This document shows, in pieces, positions 3,184 to 58,452 of a DNA stretch of 64,000 nucleotides (its first letter is position 1; every line of letters begins with the position of its first letter). Under the pieces are notes generated by a model. That model did not search any database. It was not told the DNA's origin and saw only the letters and a list, made by a program, of their open reading frames with translations. The position numbers and the translations under genes were made by a program. The DNA comes from Enterobacter phage KKP_3711. The stretch lies in the sequence record PP579741.1; one strand, 5' to 3'.

Positions 3184-4857
3184 ATGTCTCGTATTTCCGC
3201 CGAAAATATTGCTCTTATCGTTAAACGTGCTGCTGGTTTAAACTATTTCGGCAAACGTCTGGACGATAAGAAAAATGAAGTCGCTGAAAAAATCAGCATG
3301 GAAGTATTCAATACGGCTAGCCGTTCGGCAGAAGTAAAACAGGTTATTGAAGATAATAAACCTGTAAAAGCTGATAAGCCAAAAGCCGAAAGGGTAGCGA
3401 AAGAAGATACTCGTCCAGTGGCTGCTGGTGCTATGAATAGTGCCGTTGATAACTGGAAAGTTAAAACGGGCAAACGCTTTATTCTTACTAGCATTCAAAA
3501 CAATACTTTCCCTCATGCTAACTTTTTAGCATCACTGGAAAAGGCCGCCGAATATCTCGGTGCTGAATTGCTGGTTAGCAAATATCTGTATAATAAAAAC
3601 GGATTCCAGAATGGGGAAGGCGGGAAAGATATTAAATTCGATTCTGCTTTCGATAAATATATTATTGAGGAAAACGTATTCCTTAATAATCGTGAATCTG
3701 GTTTCGCTTTTATGGCTGAATTAAACATTCTGCCTACTGCCTCTTATCCGCTGTCAGGATTCGCGGAAACGGCTACTGCATATGATCTTAAAGGTCTGGT
3801 AGTGGGTCACGCTAAAATTACTGCTGAGAGCGTGGCGGCGTTGAAGGGTGAATCTGTGCGCCGTTTATATTCAACTGGTACGGCTACACTGAAAAACTAT
3901 ATTCAGCAAAAGGCCGGACAAAAAGCCGAAGCGCTTCATAATTACGGTGCGCTGTTAGTTGAATTTGACGATGAAGGAACTTTCTTTGTCCGTCAACTGG
4001 AAGCTATGGATGCTAGCGGCGAATTTTACGATTTGAATCTTCATTTCACTCCTAGCGGAGTTAATGAAGTTACAGGTCATGTCTTAGCGCTGCAATATGG
4101 TGATATCCACGCCGAAAAAATTGATGATGAATGTGCTAGCGCGTCATGGAATAGTGAAGATTCATTGCTTGATATTCTCAAGCCGAAATATCAACTAATC
4201 CATGACGTTCATGACTTCACCAGTCGAAATCATCATAATCGTCAGAGCGGCGTTTTCCTTGCTGAGCAATATGCGCAAGGCCGTGACAAAGTGCTAGACG
4301 ATTTGATTGATACAGGTCGCATCCTTGAGCAAATGGATCGCCCATTCAGCCAAACGGTGATTGTTGAATCTAACCACGATTTAGCGCTCGCTCGTTGGCT
4401 TAATGACCCTAAAGCGAACATCACCCAAGACCCTGCAAACGCTCACCTATTCCATACTCTTAACGCCGCTATTTATGGTGCTATTGCAGACCGTGATACT
4501 AGTTTTAACGTTCTGGATTATGCGCTACGTCAGGTTGCAGGTTGCGATTTTGCCGCCGTTTTCCTTTCAACGGATGAATCTTTTAAACTGGCTGGCATTG
4601 AATGCGGCTGTCACGGTCATAATGGCATTAACGGCAGTAAGGGAAGCCCTAAACAATTTGTTAAGTTGGGCAAGATGAACACAGGTCATACTCATACGCC
4701 TAGCATTTACGGCGGTGTATATACTGCTGGCGTGTCTGGTAGTCTGGATATGGGTTATAACATTGGTGCATCTAGCTGGAGTCAGACGCATATCATTACC
4801 TATGCAAACGGTCAGCGTACTTTGATTGATTTTAAAAACGGTAAATTTTTCGCTTAA
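3184..4857 (+). CDS. A1: A1-like pre-early protein, calcineurin-like metallophosphoesterase (host DNA degradation / second-step transfer)
   Basis: 557 aa (T5 A1 is about 556 aa as I recall). Metallophosphatase motifs GDIHA (about nt 4099), GNHD-type ESNHD, and GCHGHNG. AGGAG SD. Confidence 0.75.
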   Translation: MSRISAENIALIVKRAAGLNYFGKRLDDKKNEVAEKISMEVFNTASRSAEVKQVIEDNKPVKADKPKAERVAKEDTRPVAAGAMNSAVDNWKVKTGKRFILTSIQNNTFPHANFLASLEKAAEYLGAELLVSKYLYNKNGFQNGEGGKDIKFDSAFDKYIIEENVFLNNRESGFAFMAELNILPTASYPLSGFAETATAYDLKGLVVGHAKITAESVAALKGESVRRLYSTGTATLKNYIQQKAGQKAEALHNYGALLVEFDDEGTFFVRQLEAMDASGEFYDLNLHFTPSGVNEVTGHVLALQYGDIHAEKIDDECASASWNSEDSLLDILKPKYQLIHDVHDFTSRNHHNRQSGVFLAEQYAQGRDKVLDDLIDTGRILEQMDRPFSQTVIVESNHDLALARWLNDPKANITQDPANAHLFHTLNAAIYGAIADRDTSFNVLDYALRQVAGCDFAAVFLSTDESFKLAGIECGCHGHNGINGSKGSPKQFVKLGKMNTGHTHTPSIYGGVYTAGVSGSLDMGYNIGASSWSQTHIITYANGQRTLIDFKNGKFFA

Positions 4858-4917
4858 TTAAAATCTAATAGCGGGAATTAATATTCCCGCTAACCCTAAA
4901 TAACTGGAGAATATTAA

Positions 4918-5322
4918 ATGAAATTAGTTTTCGTATACCGCAACGGAAAAACTTTTACCGCTCGTAACGTTGAAGATATTCATATTGTTACAGGTGGCGG
5001 GAATGTTACGGGTATTAATTATATTCGTAATCTTGATTTTGAAACATATCAGCAAACAGGTGATATGAAAAAGCTAGATAAAAATGCTGGCTTGTTAGTA
5101 CGCCGCAATGGTGATCAACGCTGGCAAGAGGCTAGCGAAGCCGTATCAATCCGAGTAGACAAAGCTCAATTGAGCTACGTCATTGTAGAGGAAAAGCTCG
5201 TCTATACGGATTTAGTAGGATTGTTTGGTGATGTTAGCAATCGCAATATGGTAAGCGTTATTCCTTGCCTTGATTCTTACACTGCTGAAAATATCGCAGA
5301 CGTTCTAAAAACCATTAGCTAA
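4918..5322 (+). CDS. A2: A2-like pre-early protein
   Basis: 134-aa ORF immediately downstream of A1 with GGAG SD. Position and size are as in T5. No motif seen. Confidence 0.5.
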   Translation: MKLVFVYRNGKTFTARNVEDIHIVTGGGNVTGINYIRNLDFETYQQTGDMKKLDKNAGLLVRRNGDQRWQEASEAVSIRVDKAQLSYVIVEEKLVYTDLVGLFGDVSNRNMVSVIPCLDSYTAENIADVLKTIS

Positions 5323-5389
5323 TATATTCTAGCGGCTTTATAGTATAGGCCGCTAGTCAATATATTAACCCTGTAAAGGAGAGCTATAA

Positions 5390-6088
5390 ATGCAACAAAT
5401 CACTAATATTAATCTGTGGGATTTAGATGGTACAGTAATCAATTCCGCGCACCGTGTTTTACCTCTGCTGGATAGTGATGGTAATTTAGATCTAAATCGC
5501 TATCGTAATGAGGCCTGCAAACATGAATTAATTATTCAAGATTCATTGTTGCCACTGGTTGAATTAATGCGCCGCCAGATGTCAGCGCCTAATACAATCA
5601 ACTATATTATCACCGCTCGCGCCATGTCCAAGTCTGATTATTATTTCCTGCGTAAACAGGGATTGAGAGGTCGCAACGGTGACAATATCCAAGTATTTAG
5701 CCGTGATACTATTCATAAGTTTGCGCCGTTGGAATCGGTGAAACATATTTACAACTCTCGTGACGCTGATTATAAAGCGTTTTATTTTGATCATATTATC
5801 CGCTTACATGGTCGTGATAACGTTAATTATACTATGTATGATGATCATAAGGGTGTGCTAGAAAAGGCGCGTGAATATGGATTCAACGCCATAGACGCCA
5901 CGCAATTAAACGAGATGTTAACAATCGGCATTCAGTTAGCAAGCGAACAATTTCTGGAGGAAACTATTTCCGATGATTTAGATATTGATTATTTAAATCA
6001 AAGGTTGTCGTTTGCATGGCAACAATTAACAGAAGAAGAACAGGATTATTATTCTGTTAAGTATCCTAAACTAGCTCAGGCAGTTTAA
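5390..6088 (+). CDS. dmp: 5'-deoxyribonucleotidase, HAD superfamily (dmp-like)
   Basis: N-terminal DLDGTV (the HAD DxDGT motif) and AAGGAGAG SD. Size and position match the T5 pre-early dmp. Confidence 0.7.
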   Translation: MQQITNINLWDLDGTVINSAHRVLPLLDSDGNLDLNRYRNEACKHELIIQDSLLPLVELMRRQMSAPNTINYIITARAMSKSDYYFLRKQGLRGRNGDNIQVFSRDTIHKFAPLESVKHIYNSRDADYKAFYFDHIIRLHGRDNVNYTMYDDHKGVLEKAREYGFNAIDATQLNEMLTIGIQLASEQFLEETISDDLDIDYLNQRLSFAWQQLTEEEQDYYSVKYPKLAQAV

Positions 6089-13757: not shown

Positions 13758-15131
13758 ATGTCTTTTGATTTAGAAAAACTGCGTAAAGAACTTGGTCTTG
13801 ACACTATTACTGACGCTCTGAAAGCTCAGGAAGATGCTCGTAAGGCTGAAGAAGCTCGTAAAGCTGCTGAAGCTGCTAAAGCCGCTGAAGAAGCTCGTAT
13901 GAAGAAGATGGTAGATGAAGCTACTGGCGAAACTAAAGAAAAGCTGGAAGCTGCTCTGGGCATCATCAAAGAGTTCTCTGACTCTAAGAAAACTTCTGAC
14001 GAAGAATTCGCTAAGAAGCTGAATGATAGCCAAGAAACTATCGTTATGCTGCAAGATCAGGTTAAACAACTGTTAGCTGCTCGCGAAGGTAAAGGTTTCG
14101 TTTCTAACGCAATCACCCACGCAATGTTCGGCGACCAGAAAGGTTTCGAAGAAGAAGTAGAAAAAGTAGTTCTGCTTTCCTATATCATGGAAAAAGGTAT
14201 CTTTGATACTGAATATGGTGCTGCTCACCAGAAGGCTGTTAACTCTAGCTCTTCTATTGAAGTTTCTACCGAAAACTACGAAACTATCTTCTCCACCCGT
14301 ATCCTGCGTGATATTGAAGCTGAGCTGAAAATTGGTCGTATGTTCACTGAACTCCCAATGTCCAGCAAAAACCTGACTATGCTGGTTGAGCCAGAAGCTG
14401 GTGAAGCGAGCTGGGTAGATGCTTCTACTTACGGTACTCCTGCTACTACTGGTGACGAGCTGAAAACTAAGCTGGGCGAAGTTTCCTTCCGTACCTTCAA
14501 GCTGGCTGCTAAGTCTTTCATCACTGATGAAACTGAGGAAGATGCAATCATCTCTCTGCTGCCTATCCTGCGTCGTCGTCTGATCGAAGCACATGCTGTT
14601 TCTATCGAGAAGGCTTTCCTGTTAGGTGATGGTAATGGTAAACCAACTGGTCTGGTTACTTTTGCACAGAATGATAATGCAGTATTCACTGCTGAAGCAA
14701 ATGCTGATGGTTCTGTATCTGTAACTGCTGCACAGATTCAGTCTATGCGTCGTATGCTGGGTCGTAAAGGTCTCGACCGTTCTAAGCTGGCTCTGGTTAT
14801 CTCCATGGATGCTTATTACGATCTGCTGACTGATGAAGAATGGCAGGACGTTGCTCAGGTTGGTGATGCTTCTGTGAAACTGACTGGTGAAGTAGGTCGT
14901 ATCTACGGTATCCCAGTTGTTGTTTCTGAGTACTTCCCTGATCGTGCTGCTGGTGCTGTATTCGGTGTTCTGGTTTATCGCGATAACTTCGTGGTTCCAC
15001 GTCAGCGTCAGGTAACTGTTGAGCGTGAACGTCAGGCAGAGCGTCAGCGTGATGCTTACTACGTTACTCAGCGTGTTAACCTACAGCGTTTCTTCGAAAA
15101 CGGTGTTGCTGCAATCAAATATGCTGCTTAA
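13758..15131 (+). CDS. major capsid protein with N-terminal scaffolding (delta) domain (pb8-like)
   Basis: 457 aa. N-terminal coiled-coil, Ala/Glu/Lys-rich region (EDARKAEEARKAAEAAKAAEEAR). Strong terminator immediately downstream. Confidence 0.85.
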   Translation: MSFDLEKLRKELGLDTITDALKAQEDARKAEEARKAAEAAKAAEEARMKKMVDEATGETKEKLEAALGIIKEFSDSKKTSDEEFAKKLNDSQETIVMLQDQVKQLLAAREGKGFVSNAITHAMFGDQKGFEEEVEKVVLLSYIMEKGIFDTEYGAAHQKAVNSSSSIEVSTENYETIFSTRILRDIEAELKIGRMFTELPMSSKNLTMLVEPEAGEASWVDASTYGTPATTGDELKTKLGEVSFRTFKLAAKSFITDETEEDAIISLLPILRRRLIEAHAVSIEKAFLLGDGNGKPTGLVTFAQNDNAVFTAEANADGSVSVTAAQIQSMRRMLGRKGLDRSKLALVISMDAYYDLLTDEEWQDVAQVGDASVKLTGEVGRIYGIPVVVSEYFPDRAAGAVFGVLVYRDNFVVPRQRQVTVERERQAERQRDAYYVTQRVNLQRFFENGVAAIKYAA

Positions 15132-15151
15132 TAGGCACTAATTGCCGGATA

Positions 15152-15180
15152 AAGGAGAGCTTCGGCTCTCCTTTTTTATT
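15152..15180 (+). terminator. rho-independent terminator after the major capsid gene
   Basis: AAGGAGAGC-TTCG-GCTCTCCTT hairpin followed by TTTTTTATT. Confidence 0.8.
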
Positions 15181-15191
15181 ATGGGTACTAC

Positions 15192-15701
15192 ATGGAAATT
15201 TTAACCGAAGATGATTACAGAATCTATGCGGGGCTTAAAAGACCTGAAGTAGATCCTAAAGTTCAACAGCTTATTAAAGCGGCTAATGCTCATGTTATTA
15301 AATACTTGAATATAGAAACTAGTCCTATTAGTAAAATTCAAGTAAATAGAAATAGAGATACTTACTTCCTAGATGCTATAGAAGCCACATCAATTGCTTC
15401 TGTTACTAGAATGGGGAGCACAGAGCCAGTTGACGTAGGGAGTTACTTCTTACAAGCTCCAGGTGTTTTAGTATTTACAACTGTTCCAATTGAAGGTTGG
15501 TATACTGTTGTAACAGATTCTGATCCTTTAGCTGTCACAGACGATTTAAAAACCGCTGTCTATCTTTTAGTACAGTATTGGGATAAAAATGAATACAGAG
15601 ATAGTAGAACATTTGGTGGAGAAACTGTTGCTTTCACCAACCAAAATACAGGTATGCCAAAACATATTCGTACTATCTTAGAACTATACCGTAATATCTA
15701 A
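15192..15701 (+). CDS. head completion / connector protein (p144-like)
   Basis: 169 aa, at the position of the T5 head-completion gene. Confidence 0.45.
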   Translation: MEILTEDDYRIYAGLKRPEVDPKVQQLIKAANAHVIKYLNIETSPISKIQVNRNRDTYFLDAIEATSIASVTRMGSTEPVDVGSYFLQAPGVLVFTTVPIEGWYTVVTDSDPLAVTDDLKTAVYLLVQYWDKNEYRDSRTFGGETVAFTNQNTGMPKHIRTILELYRNI

Positions 15702-53991: not shown

Positions 53992-54237
53992 TTATTCAAA
54001 ATCATCGAAACGCTCTTGGCTTTGGTGGTACTGTATTAGTTCAGAGATTGTTCTATAGGCTTTTTTCAAATCGTAAGGAATAGTGGTTGATAACCTAATA
54101 GTCCTATCTTTGTAAAGCCAGTCTGCAATATCTGGAATACGAGCCAATAAAGGCGGGACAACCCTACAAATAGGATCTCCCGCCTTTTTAGGTTTAGAGA
54201 CTTTGGGACGTTTATACACAGGATCCCATTTACTCAA
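53992..54237 (-). CDS. hypothetical protein
   Basis: 81-aa ORF. Confidence 0.3.
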   Translation of the reverse strand: MSKWDPVYKRPKVSKPKKAGDPICRVVPPLLARIPDIADWLYKDRTIRLSTTIPYDLKKAYRTISELIQYHQSQERFDDFE

Positions 54238-56972
54238 ATTTCAGTCACCTCTTCTCCATGTGTATGGATATTTAACAGAGTTCTAGGAATACCAATACCT
54301 TCCTTAGCACAATATATTTTAACCCATTCTACCACATGATCATATTCAAGATTATAACCAATACCTATTGAATACAGAACATGCGACAATCTACTAGCTT
54401 TATAATGAAAACCAAAAGCGTGATAAAAACCTTTCTTATTACTAGAGATGTATTGACGCAATGCACCAATTTTATCTTTAGCTGCTCTGGCTTTCTTAAT
54501 TAATGGGATAATATATGATGCAGACTGCATTAACATAATAGCTCGTTCTTCAGGTCTATTTTTAACATACCACACCGCATCTTCCATTTCAATCTCTTCG
54601 ACTGTCTTTTCTAGATACATTGCACACTTTTGTTTTTCTTCAAAAGCATTCTGGTACATTGGAATAATACCTTGAGCCTGTGAAGCCATAATAGCTTCCG
54701 CATGTTTAACTTTCTCGGCAGCTCGATTAGGTTTAATAATATCCCAATCTGCAATATCTGCCTTGCTGAGAATGTCTATCTCTGCACCCTGATCTGCTAA
54801 CAAATAACGTAAAGTACCTGCATAGGCTTGAGATTCACGCAAATAACGAGCTTCCATAATTTCTTTAGAACCAGTTAATATTTCACCAATTCCACTGAAA
54901 ATATCTTTTAATGTAACCCCATCAATATAAGGACTACTACACTGTGGTGCCACATAATAACAGATAAACTTAGCTCCACGATCTCGACGAATTGCCTGGA
55001 ATCGAACATACGGAGTATGGATTGGAGTATCAGTTACAGAAAATACGTTATCAAAATACCTAAAGTCAACCCCGTTAGTAACACTTGGACTACAGATTAA
55101 ACCAGCTACTTTCTGTTTGAGAAGCTCTTTGTTAGTATATTGCAGAATCTTTCTGTTTACTTTCTCTAGTGAAGAATCACTATGAATAGCTCGAACAACT
55201 CCTGAAAACTGTTCACAGATTACTTCTAGATACGCATTAATGGTACTAGGTCCTTCGGTTGTTACCATTAAGGACTTCTGACCAGCTACTAAAGATTCAA
55301 AGAACCATGTCCAAACTGCTTTAGATGTTGGAACTTCTACTGCGCGAACTCCATCAAGCATTTTACGATCATGAAGAATTAGATCGATATCTTTTTCATC
55401 TTCAATAATTTGAGAATATAATTTGATAGTTTCTTCTGATAAGTCACCATCTGCCAGAACAACATAAGTTGCACTGTTAATTAATTCTGCAAATGCTCGT
55501 AAAATCTGTGGACGTCTTGCTTCGGTTAATGAAGATTTCAGAAGATCATTTAAGATTGCGTCTGCTTCATCCAAAAACAGAAAATCACAACCACATCCTA
55601 AAAGTCTATGAGTAGAATGAATTGTAATTGACAATCTCTCTACATCACCACTAGCGTATGCATCAGCACCACCATCAGAATATGATTCCATTCCTAGTTT
55701 TAAAGCATTTGCTTCTACTAGAGATACAGTGTTTGTAATTGCAACACATCGTTTACCAACTAATTCTGGAGATTTTAACCATTGAGCTACAGTATGAGTT
55801 TTACCAGACCCAAGACTGGCCTTAATAAACGTTAGTTTATGTTTGGCCGGAAGCTCTTTAATGTCAAGATAATTACCTTTAGCATTTGGTACAATTACAT
55901 TAACACCAGGCATACTAATTTCACGTTTCGCATTAGATACCCATGCATGAACTGCTGCTTTTCTGGCGTTATTAACATAATCTGCGGGAACTTTCTGTTT
56001 ATCATTATCCATTACATATCTTTCAATATGTGGTAGAATGGCTCTGTCCAATGCATCGAAAGAATAACCTTCGGCAAGAGCTTTATGATAAATACGAAGA
56101 ATGTGACGAGTATACCATTCATCACTTTGTTCTGGCAGATTTTCTAACTCACGTTCAAGAATTGGAGAAGGAGTTTTCTGGAAGTTAATTTTTCCATAAA
56201 GTTCAAACTCTTTATCTGTTACTCTGGAACGGTTATAGGTTTTCTCAATATCCCTGTAGTAATCAGGTGGAGTCATTTTTGCACCCTTACGTTTAATAAG
56301 GCGAGGCAAATTCTCCACAACAAAGGGATCTTTACAACGTTGGAATGTCGGACTAGCAAAATATAGAATGTGAACGCGATGATAAAGTGAGGTATCTATT
56401 AATGCTTTCTTTGTTCCCATCTTTTCACGATACTCATTATTTAGAGATGCAAAAAGTTGCCCTAACTGAATAGGGTTCAAAGCAATATTGCTTTCTAAGA
56501 ACATGTGTGCACGAATACCTGACTTAATACCAGCAGATGCTGAGCCTTGAACAATATATCCTAAATCTTTAGGGAAAATGTCTGGACGTAAGTCATGCAA
56601 AATACTTGCAATGTGTTCACCAACCTTATACATATTACAAGGGTTTACGGATGACTCTAGGTTATCGATGTCCAAACATACAATATTACTTTCCACCAGA
56701 GGTGAAAAAGCCTCGGATACCCTTCTTAATGAACTTGGGCTATCTCCGATATATCGTTCTCGAATTACAGCAACATCCTGTCGTCCCATGAGTGATTCTA
56801 CAAAATCAAACATTTCGTCTAAAGATTCCGGATACACTTCATCCTCTAGCACAAACCTAGATACTTTGGGAACTGACTGGAGTTCTACATAGTTGCCACT
56901 GTTGTCCATACCAAATTGTTTTGAAAACCTAGTATTATTACGACGACCCCAAGCTTTCAATAATGTAAACAC
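54234..56972 (-). CDS. replication origin-binding-type SF2 ATPase/helicase
   Basis: 912 aa. Walker A LGSGKTHT, DEAD-like FLFLDEAD. GTG start with GGAAGGA SD. Confidence 0.6.
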   Translation of the reverse strand: MFTLLKAWGRRNNTRFSKQFGMDNSGNYVELQSVPKVSRFVLEDEVYPESLDEMFDFVESLMGRQDVAVIRERYIGDSPSSLRRVSEAFSPLVESNIVCLDIDNLESSVNPCNMYKVGEHIASILHDLRPDIFPKDLGYIVQGSASAGIKSGIRAHMFLESNIALNPIQLGQLFASLNNEYREKMGTKKALIDTSLYHRVHILYFASPTFQRCKDPFVVENLPRLIKRKGAKMTPPDYYRDIEKTYNRSRVTDKEFELYGKINFQKTPSPILERELENLPEQSDEWYTRHILRIYHKALAEGYSFDALDRAILPHIERYVMDNDKQKVPADYVNNARKAAVHAWVSNAKREISMPGVNVIVPNAKGNYLDIKELPAKHKLTFIKASLGSGKTHTVAQWLKSPELVGKRCVAITNTVSLVEANALKLGMESYSDGGADAYASGDVERLSITIHSTHRLLGCGCDFLFLDEADAILNDLLKSSLTEARRPQILRAFAELINSATYVVLADGDLSEETIKLYSQIIEDEKDIDLILHDRKMLDGVRAVEVPTSKAVWTWFFESLVAGQKSLMVTTEGPSTINAYLEVICEQFSGVVRAIHSDSSLEKVNRKILQYTNKELLKQKVAGLICSPSVTNGVDFRYFDNVFSVTDTPIHTPYVRFQAIRRDRGAKFICYYVAPQCSSPYIDGVTLKDIFSGIGEILTGSKEIMEARYLRESQAYAGTLRYLLADQGAEIDILSKADIADWDIIKPNRAAEKVKHAEAIMASQAQGIIPMYQNAFEEKQKCAMYLEKTVEEIEMEDAVWYVKNRPEERAIMLMQSASYIIPLIKKARAAKDKIGALRQYISSNKKGFYHAFGFHYKASRLSHVLYSIGIGYNLEYDHVVEWVKIYCAKEGIGIPRTLLNIHTHGEEVTEI

Positions 56973-56989: not shown

Positions 56990-57024
56990 GAAGAAAAATA
57001 AAGCCATAACAACATTATTATGGC
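56990..57024 (-). terminator. hairpin plus T-run (minus strand) at the low-coordinate end of the GC-rich ORF-free island
   Basis: GCCATAA-caacatta-TTATGGC. The minus strand is followed by TTTATTTTTCTTC. Confidence 0.45.
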
Positions 57025-58206
57025 ATACACAAAAGAACTACCAATATACTCATTAATCGTGGGATTAATAGTACCCTGCTTTCTGGCTACGCATCATGCT
57101 GCATTGCACAAACATGAAGAAGATCTAATATCTAGTTTCACCTTACTCGCACATCCACTTAATGGGTGTTTCTTAATTTCCAGTATAATCCGATATTTTG
57201 CGGTCGATGGTAGACAAACCTTGATTGATACTGTCCCATAACTTTAAGTGGGGAAGTTTCATGCACTGTTCCTTGTTAGTTATCACCCTAATCATGTATA
57301 ACCACGCTCTTGAATTAGTCGACGGGGAAAGCCGGCAAGCATCTCTCCCTCAGTCCAGAACCTCAGATCCCATAGCTAGTACGACGTTTTCCTAAAGTGC
57401 TTTTAGGTCAGTCTTGGCATTCAGCACCGTCTCTTGCTTATCACATATATTCAGGGGTTCGCACCCTTCGTAAAGACAGTTATCATCCTAATAGGTATGA
57501 AAACTCTGCCCCTAATATGTAGCTCAGCTTTACTCCCAGTACTAGCGTGATCAGGCCAATTTTTCCTCCCATCCCGGTCGGCACGCCCCGTTGCTTATGG
57601 TCGGGGAAGACTCGTGGGTTTCTGCGACTTGAATCGATCTTATCTTCTTCGAAATACTTCTGCACATCATTGTCCCACAGACTTACGAGAGGTCATTGAA
57701 CGCCGAGTTATGTTACGACGACAGAAGTATGCATACGCTTTAATATGCTGTTTTGTTAGGCTCCAGAGGCCGCCGGCACCACCGGTCGATCTGCTCCTCG
57801 GACTTGTAAGGTGTAAACACTCGAACGCATCCTCTAACCCACATGTGCGCTTGACTCTACAGCTTTTCACATGTACTTATCACCATTGCATCCCATGCTC
57901 AGGTCTTCAATCCGTCCGTCTAGCAACTCGTCTCTCATTATTGGATTTGCGGTCGAATAATAAGTTCTTAGCTCTAGAGTTTCAGAAGGTCGTAAAGCTT
58001 TTCCCTCAGGTCTACTTTACAATTTTTGACTTATATAATTGGTTGAGTATGAAATAGCTCTACGATTGAATTAACCCCCGTAAGTGAGCACGTATTTCAT
58101 AGAAATTTACTTTAGGTATAATCTCCTCAACTGATACAAATATTATACCTAAAATTAATCTCATTGGCAACTAAAATTTTAAAATGATGATCGGACAGCA
58201 TAAAAA

Positions 58207-58240
58207 GACCCTGTAAACCAATTTAGTCTACAGGGTCTAA
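58207..58240 (-). terminator. hairpin terminator candidate
   Basis: AGACCCTGTA-aaccaatttagtc-TACAGGGTCT inverted repeat downstream of the 68-aa ORF. Confidence 0.4.
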
Positions 58241-58245
58241 CGGAT

Positions 58246-58452
58246 TTAAAAGGGTACTACCACTTTATCCAATGGATTGACATACAACCATTCAGCAGTG
58301 GTAGCGTAGATAGTGTTAAAGTCACTGCCAAGGGCTTCTTTGTAACCTTTCAATCTGTATTGAAATCGATAACACCAAAAGCCTTCTTTATTCATGAATA
58401 TATCCCACTCACTTCTCATTACTGTACTTATCCATAAATTTGTCAAAAGCAA
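58246..58452 (-). CDS. hypothetical protein
   Basis: 68-aa ORF. Confidence 0.25.
   Translation of the reverse strand: MLLTNLWISTVMRSEWDIFMNKEGFWCYRFQYRLKGYKEALGSDFNTIYATTAEWLYVNPLDKVVVPF

Follow-up and report, generated by a model that had tools for sequence, protein, structure and literature searches.

Structured RNAs longer than about 500 nucleotides (nt) are rare in bacteria and phages, and among them, solved structures are those of ribosomes, self-splicing introns, RNase P and, recently, RNA-only cages (PMC12286853). The closest described systems are GOLLD, an elaborately structured, phage-encoded and covariation-defined RNA of unknown function with many members above 800 nt, and ROOL (rumen-originating, ornate, large), an abundant phage and prophage RNA of about 600-660 nt with several domains, for which no protein partner is known and which forms RNA-only cages (PMC12286853). 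Here, we present an analysis of a non-coding locus in a 64,000-nt stretch of Enterobacter phage KKP_3711 (PP579741.1), referred to as the window and used for all positions unless another locus is named. The locus lies directly upstream of the helicase gene obp, where a first-pass annotation made from the sequence alone had pointed out an island rich in guanine and cytosine (GC). We consider it very likely that a highly structured non-coding RNA (ncRNA) of about 1.1 kb is encoded here by a discrete minus-strand gene, of which the island is the GC-enriched core. Judged from the comparative sequence evidence, this RNA constitutes a new family among the very large structured RNAs of phages, in kind closest to GOLLD and ROOL.

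The reading relies on relatives, for which we use L-numbers as names of loci on related contigs. A protein search with obp found L004, L005 and L006 on long Logan contigs, where obp is 80%, 79% and 75% identical to that of the window, respectively, and where 1.4-1.6 kb without a called gene lie upstream of it in each case. The window and these three loci have in common a layout of terminator, promoter, about 1 kb of non-coding DNA and obp, and the non-coding part is conserved block-wise with compensatory changes such as GCAUAU..GUAUGC / GCACAU..GUGUGC / GCAUGU..GCAUGC. Three further copies, reached via the neighbouring Sir2 gene, are 99.7% (L090), 99.4% (L091) and 94.4% (L095) identical to the window RNA; the lookups L092 and L093, made by the same route, lay in unrelated contexts and were discarded. 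The RNA is represented by five distinct sequences, all at the same locus and falling into two sub-lineages, and the window core (57060-58045) is syntenic in every relative. Identity of the core among four sequences is 58-72%, the values for obp being 51-57% at third codon positions and 82-86% at first and second positions.

The core of the window (minus strand) was aligned with those of L004, L005 and L006 over 1,018 columns with a mean column identity of 73% (alignment A3), and RNAalifold folded this alignment into 34 helices comprising 187 pairs, 86 of which have both partners changed. Standard pairs occupy 95.7% of the cells, compared to 36-42% when partners are slid by 1-3 columns, the number of covarying pairs falls from 86 to 7-15 with slid partners, and none of 500 shuffles attained the observed values. 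Because RNAalifold itself optimises covariation, 30 column-shuffled alignments were re-run through the program as a null, and also by this measure the consensus energy (-131.9 vs -55.9 +/- 6.0 kcal/mol; z -12.6) and the count of covarying pairs (86 vs 20.5 +/- 3.8, maximum 29; z +17) stand far outside the shuffled range. The same procedure on two 1-kb pieces of obp, serving as a coding control, gave energy z values of -2.1 and -0.5 with 9 and 28 covarying pairs, and the covariation signal is, thus, specific to the non-coding region. L095, which was held out of the model, differs from the window by 34 substitutions, 29 of them in the 583 unpaired columns and five in the 363 paired ones; all four affected pairs are still paired, one of them via a double AU-to-GC change. 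Among the near-identical copies, all five differences are located in unpaired columns.

The strand can be read from the same data. Consensus energy is -131.9 on the minus and -98.8 on the plus strand, G-U pairs make up 88 of 736 cells and include five invariant ones, and the same helices are 83.7% paired if read on the other strand; these observations favour the minus strand. The consensus leaves 212 of the 365 invariant columns unpaired, and the invariant unpaired runs, including GACGGAUUGAA, AGAUAAGAU, GAUUCAAGU, GAGUCUUCCCCGAC and UAAGCAACGGGGC, suggest tertiary contacts or binding sites. With synteny, compensatory pairs, shuffle tests and strand bias all in line, the large structured RNA proposed in the first-pass annotation is upheld, while the extent given there (57240-58060) proved too small: conserved structure covers roughly 58030-57075, and the transcript is predicted to start at 58135 and to end near 56994. 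Table 1 collects the features of the locus. The helix that closes the body (helix 5) is paired in 85% of cells and has one compensatory pair, and that closing the central domain (helix 14) is paired in 100% of cells, with compensatory changes in five pairs. Invariant runs of the most conserved sub-domain are CUCGUAAG, CAAUGAUGU, AGAUAAGAU, GAUUCAAGU, GAGUCUUCCCCGAC and UAAGCAACGGGGC, and the CCCCG/CGGGG stem with an 11-nt loop that had been spotted by eye could be placed at 57606-57602 / 57590-57586, where it is invariant in all relatives.

Table 1 Features of the ncRNA locus and its flanking genes (window coordinates); transcription signals are consensus matches.
Feature	Positions	Strand	Description
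Gene for a 68-amino-acid protein	58246-58452	minus	Last protein gene upstream and boundary of the non-coding DNA; phrog_5116 (E 2e-10)
Intrinsic terminator of the upstream operon (NrdD, HAD phosphatase, Sir2, small genes)	58206-58238	minus	15-bp stem, then TTTTTAT
Near-consensus sigma-70 promoter	58142-58170	minus	TTGCCA-17 nt-TATAAT, 11 of 12 matches; A/T-rich upstream tract
Predicted primary ncRNA transcript	56994-58135	minus	About 1,140 nt, bounded by promoter and terminator; both ends predicted
5' hairpin domain	58046-58135	minus	Window lineage including L095; largely absent in L004-L006 (alignment, local fold)
Conserved structured core	57060-58045	minus	34 helices and 187 consensus pairs, long-range helices among them
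Body closed by a long-range helix	57115-57909	minus	UGAAG (57909-57905) / CUUCA (57119-57115); modest support
Most conserved sub-domain	57560-57752	minus	Basis of covariance model R1; 83% mean column identity
Central multi-helix domain	57350-57632	minus	Closed by a 13-bp long-range helix, 57632-57617 / 57362-57350
Invariant hairpin	57586-57606	minus	CCCCG-ACCAUAAGCAA-CGGGG
GNRA-type hairpin (helix 24)	57453-57467	minus	AGGGUGCGAACCCU; stem covaries, sequence not kept in L005 and L006
Weak extended -10 promoter-like site	57017-57044	minus	TTGGTA-16 nt-TG-CATAAT, 9 of 12 matches; overlaps 5' arm of the terminator
Intrinsic terminator after the RNA	56994-57024	minus	GCCAUAAUA/UGUUAUGGC stem of nine pairs including one G-U, then UUUAUUUUUC
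obp (T5 D2-like superfamily 2 (SF2) helicase)	54234-56972	minus	912 amino acids, related to UL9-like origin-binding proteins; downstream gene, GTG start

The gap without a credible open reading frame (ORF), from the obp start at 56972 to the stop of the 68-amino-acid (aa) gene at 58246, measures 1,274 nt, in agreement with the earlier estimate of about 1.3 kb. It holds ORFs of 73, 147, 60, 67 and 56 aa, none of which has a significant match in Pfam or PHROG, and no open frame is common to the window RNA and its relatives, with L006 lacking any frame above 55 codons; the earlier impression of a stretch without convincing ORFs is confirmed. One could still see in the 147-aa and other short ORFs the remains of a frameshifted protein-coding gene, the more so as coding genes in this genome can match the GC of the island. 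The frames, however, do not coincide among relatives and carry no family match, and the substitutions are compensatory by base pair rather than codon-periodic, all of which makes a decayed gene extremely improbable. Regarding composition, the GC content of 200-nt windows between 57200 and 57999 is 0.46-0.495 against 0.31-0.39 in the flanks, and that of the conserved core is 0.448 compared to 0.382 for the entire window, with GC enrichment of the core in each relative too. The GC island of the first-pass annotation, thus, exists, but the 55% given for it was too high, and coding DNA at 14401-15200 reaches an equal GC content (0.469), so that the island is no unique composition peak. ARAGORN detected neither tRNA nor tmRNA within the window, consistent with the lack of tRNA hallmarks that had been noted by eye.

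The other alternative raised at the outset was a foreign insertion, that is, a mobile element, a group I or II intron or a captured host RNA gene, for which the GC content above the genome average and the homing endonucleases carried by T5-like genomes (T5 annotation) could be cited. Against it, the element is syntenic and GC-enriched in all relatives, and the N-terminus of obp is intact and collinear with that of T5, so that no exon is interrupted. BLAST of the non-coding DNA against GenBank phages, plasmids and E. coli genomes gave no match, and exact-motif scans of IMG/VR, JGI metagenomes and GTDB with two invariant motifs, which reach close relatives only, returned chance hits only. With Rfam 15, nothing was found at gathering thresholds in the window, L004-L006 or T5, and at E <= 10 nothing relevant in the RNA region and L004-L006, including any intron, ribozyme or rRNA model; the low-score hits (miRNA-like, trpB-like) are spurious and fall on the promoter hairpin and the terminator. 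A foreign insertion is, in our assessment, very improbable, and we regard both it and a decayed gene as effectively excluded. The same searches leave the candidate families named earlier (group I/II introns, GOLLD/ROOL, OMEGA RNA) without a match, and membership of GOLLD, ROOL, group I/II introns, OMEGA/HEARO, RNase P or other curated families is excluded as far as the Rfam models can detect it. Further, a profile hidden Markov model (HMM) of the core and covariance model R1, built on the best-conserved 190 positions, retrieved clade members only, at 192-225 bits, and gave no homolog in 35-60 other T5-like loci.

The first-pass annotation had additionally read two hairpins with T-runs as brackets of a discrete minus-strand transcript. 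Both are seen on the minus strand, at 58238-58206 and 57024-57003, and together with a promoter they frame the element, as predicted from consensus. The upstream terminator hairpin recurs in L004, L005 and L006, as does an equivalent promoter (3578-3606, 3612-3640 and 3668-3696, respectively), and conservation and covariation span most of the predicted transcript. By these consensus elements, the host RNA polymerase would start at the near-consensus early promoter, probably near 58135, and most transcripts would stop at the terminator at 57024-56994, so that the product would be a stand-alone RNA and not the leader of an mRNA. The T-run of this terminator ends about 21 nt ahead of the obp GTG, with no strong promoter between the terminator and the obp start in the window. 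The weak site at 57017-57044 is, speculatively, a candidate for obp's own promoter, as transcripts starting from it would be without the full terminator hairpin and could express obp. Past the core, terminators are present in L005 (4720-4744) and L004 (4756-4791), and 210-260 nt of spacer that is not conserved separate each of them from obp.

Two further observations concern the DNA on either side of the core. Between core and obp, L004 (4594-5000), L005 (4615-5000) and L006 (4606-5000) carry 350-400 nt of additional non-coding DNA that shows poor conservation and holds terminator-like hairpins and promoter-like sites, a spacer that the window lineage does not have. At 58104-58160 (minus strand) of the window, a 20-bp A/U-rich hairpin takes the -10 hexamer of the RNA promoter into its 5' arm; this hairpin, the origin of the spurious miRNA-like Rfam hits, could be adopted only by the DNA itself or by transcripts reading through from upstream.

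As judged from its genes, the window phage is a divergent T5-like phage. The gene order is that of T5, with NrdD, HAD phosphatase, Sir2, small genes, obp, a PC4-like protein and ligase A + B, while a tblastn search with obp against GenBank phages gave 913 matches, none above about 35% identity. The T5 counterpart of obp is D2, characterised as a bipolar SF2 helicase and related to herpesvirus UL9 (PMC3632103), and the distant obp homologs P0005, P0006 and P0009 carry PF02399. L090 is a 110.9-kb Logan contig (SRR7495787) whose Sir2 is also present in NCBI as DS691_20980 in an assembly of Salmonella enterica serovar Bareilly, which suggests that the clade infects Salmonella and hints at a culturable, enterobacterial host; no GenBank phage record resembling the L090 clade was found. 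This contig is mosaic, its Sir2 (3501-4313) being only 87% identical to that of the window and the adjacent 1.29 kb with the RNA (4632-5922) 99.7% identical in DNA, which places a recombination boundary between Sir2 and the RNA. Elsewhere in the window, positions 1-2366 have no ORF of at least 80 aa on either strand and a GC content of 0.373, and probably hold very small genes in series.

An ORF-free gap lies at the same place ahead of obp in T5 (570 nt), Eos (607 nt) and Proteus phage 2 (821 nt), each with a promoter in the same slot ahead of it, and the T5 record annotates a terminator and a promoter directly ahead of the gap. When the window gap was aligned directly with those of T5, Eos and Proteus phage 2, the sole common block was the -10 region TATAATATTT(A/G)TAT. 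The obp-upstream regions of 66 loci were clustered into 17 groups, many of which keep an ORF-free gap of at least 600 nt, while some have a small protein gene instead. The column-shuffle test gave energy z values of -5.6 for the T5 group (26 sequences), -6.0 for the Eos/Klebsiella-phage group (three sequences), -11.1 for L036/L038 (two sequences) and -3.9, which is borderline, for the L050 group (five sequences). Five enterobacterial clusters have in common an invariant CUUAGCSG hairpin, which takes the form NNCU-UAGC-GGN'N' in the T5 type, and is located 170-410 nt upstream of obp; its closing stem covaries, as do, by eye, the outer stems. By these data, T5 and some related phages also have structured RNAs in this position, which have gone unannotated.

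These T5-type RNAs resemble the window RNA in conserved structure by the same test and in layout, with a terminator, a strong early promoter, 430-800 nt without ORFs and then obp in the same orientation, but they are not as long, and the T5 RNA is not set off from obp by a terminator. The CUUAGCSG motif is absent in the window, L004, L005 and L006, and neither nhmmer, covariance model R1 nor motif comparison gave any homology between the two types. On this evidence, the slot holds structured RNAs in several lineages, belonging to at least two families that are unrelated at the detectable level. We found no Rfam family or paper covering the T5-type RNA, and no published RNA, leader or mapped origin at this T5 locus in the literature.

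Sites of the T5-type RNA are L003 11075-11545 (T5, NC_005859 59074-59544), L001 5390-5856, L002 5240-6000, L023, L036, L038 and L017; GenBank annotates nothing there, the T5 version being common to 534 records, and several of the T5-type clusters also carry a hairpin of the GGGG-AAGUUGCCA-CCCC type. In the T5-like IMG/VR contig L070, represented by one sequence, the obp-upstream gap is 1,172 nt long with a GC content of 0.48 and no same-strand ORF of at least 70 aa, and is similar to neither RNA type. L061, L064, L057 and L018 are without a gap, and a small gene of 110-144 aa abuts obp; three of the proteins seem interrelated, and those of the four loci gave no functional clue.

Regarding the role of the window RNA, we tentatively favour, at a little under an even chance and by analogy, a trans-acting folded particle: the RNA would be made early and in abundance and would be tied to the replication-initiation module. 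Its partner, bound or sequestered, would be a protein or a nucleic acid; alternatively, the RNA would self-assemble as GOLLD and ROOL do. A role in the replication module is proposed because structured RNAs unrelated in sequence fill the same slot upstream of obp/D2 in T5 and three other T5-like lineages. A stand-alone, trans-acting RNA is proposed because a strong promoter and terminators belong to the element itself, because its complexity is reminiscent of ribozymes, with numerous unpaired nucleotides that do not vary, and because its synteny with obp persists despite sequence turnover.

The main competitor is a cis-acting leader or attenuator, in which the folded RNA would be the 5' untranslated region of the obp mRNA and would respond to a protein or metabolite by adjusting read-through at 57024-56994, obp translation or obp stability. 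Such a leader would account for the constant position of the RNA directly upstream of obp on the same strand and for a window terminator about 20 nt ahead of the obp start with no strong promoter in between. It would, however, far exceed known attenuators and riboswitches with its size of about 1 kb and 34 helices; in L004 and L005, where terminator and spacer follow the core, the folded core is not at a fixed distance from the obp ribosome-binding site; and the promoter-like site overlapping the window terminator could drive obp independently. We hold a leader to be rather unlikely.

Several points nevertheless count against a free, trans-acting structured RNA. The absence of a terminator between the structured region and obp in T5 fits a leader better than a free RNA, no recognisable terminator is located past the core in L006, and the start, 3' end and stability of the RNA are predictions, just as the trans-acting mechanism is drawn by analogy. 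With five distinct sequences from two sub-lineages, A3 columns 176-268 and several short helices are weakly determined. Further, the first-pass annotation had named a folding energy no different from that of shuffled sequence as an argument against a structured RNA, and the minimum free energy of the 821-nt island, taken as a single sequence, indeed gave z +1.45 on the minus and +1.13 on the plus strand. This single-sequence null is overridden by the comparative evidence.

A further explanation is an RNA associated with a replication origin, where a persistent RNA-DNA hybrid or a processed primer would start leading-strand synthesis beside the helicase gene. The strong promoter and the conserved position beside an initiator-type helicase gene would suit this, ColE1 RNA II sets a precedent in needing a specific fold, and T5-like phages encode their own replication machinery, with T5 origins lacking sequence-level mapping in the literature (PMC3632103). 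The locus, however, has no conserved DNA-level origin features. In the plus-strand reading, the GNRA-type hairpin contains GTTCGCAC (57457-57464), the core of box I bound by UL9 of herpes simplex virus 1 (HSV-1), but the window has one copy, as chance predicts, and the requirement of a UL9-type origin for at least two inverted, conserved GTTCGCAC-type boxes around an A/T-rich spacer contrasts with this single copy. We dropped GTTCGCAC as a conserved DNA site, as it is part of a covarying RNA hairpin that is replaced in L005 and L006, and likewise four copies of GUGAUAA repeats as iterons, as they are not kept in the relatives. Additionally, the transcript is predicted to terminate rather than enter an AT-rich unwinding element, the covarying long-range structure and invariant loops exceed the needs of a primer, and GC skew across the island is the same as in the adjoining genes. 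An origin-associated RNA is, in our view, decidedly unlikely. As a separate observation, GTTCGCAC is also found once in the 20-kb T5 locus (L003 11281-11288, minus), where it likewise lies in the gap ahead of obp and is oriented with respect to obp as it is in the window, with no obvious hairpin in T5.

Going beyond the trans-acting RNA that we favour, the window RNA could be the founding member of a new class of kilobase-sized RNA (a ribozyme, a ribonucleoprotein scaffold or a self-assembling particle) working with the UL9-like D2 helicase, and the obp-upstream slot of T5-like phages, that of T5 included, could be a hotspot at which structured RNAs, as yet unannotated, evolve fast while serving a common function. 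We regard this as doubtful; if true, the RNA would help to start or regulate phage DNA replication. Since the structured RNA that fills this slot in T5 is a different one, the role of such RNAs is testable in a tractable model phage.

Set beside known systems, the window RNA differs from each of them. Promoter-driven, folded non-coding RNAs beside replication functions are known from ColE1 RNA II and the phage T4 oriF/oriG transcripts; these have few stem-loops and defined origin DNA, while the window has no conserved origin DNA and a predicted termination. Group II introns without an ORF, at 0.6-1 kb and with a multi-domain fold and long-range helices, come near in size and complexity, but the window RNA matches no Rfam domain V/VI or D1-D4 model, has neither flanking exons nor a reverse-transcriptase/maturase ORF, and has a promoter and terminator of its own. 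A group I intron is equally unlike it, given the lack of an Intron_gpI match at E <= 10, an uninterrupted obp and the element's own promoter, and OMEGA/HEARO RNAs differ in that no Rfam match was found and the neighbours are Sir2 and obp, not IscB or TnpB. ROOL has another genomic neighbourhood and yields no Rfam match, and the window RNA is about 1.7 times longer. GOLLD resembles it as a phage-encoded, very large RNA with an elaborate fold, the window RNA being of similar or larger size at about 1.0-1.1 kb, but its usual site is near tRNA islands, while the window has no tRNA in 64 kb, gives no match to the GOLLD model and carries its RNA in the replication module, with Sir2, HAD phosphatase, NrdD and obp as neighbours. 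A covariation-supported RNA of 1.0-1.1 kb would rank among the largest outside ribosomal RNA, and its place is not near tRNA islands but in the replication module, directly before the gene of an origin-binding-type helicase.

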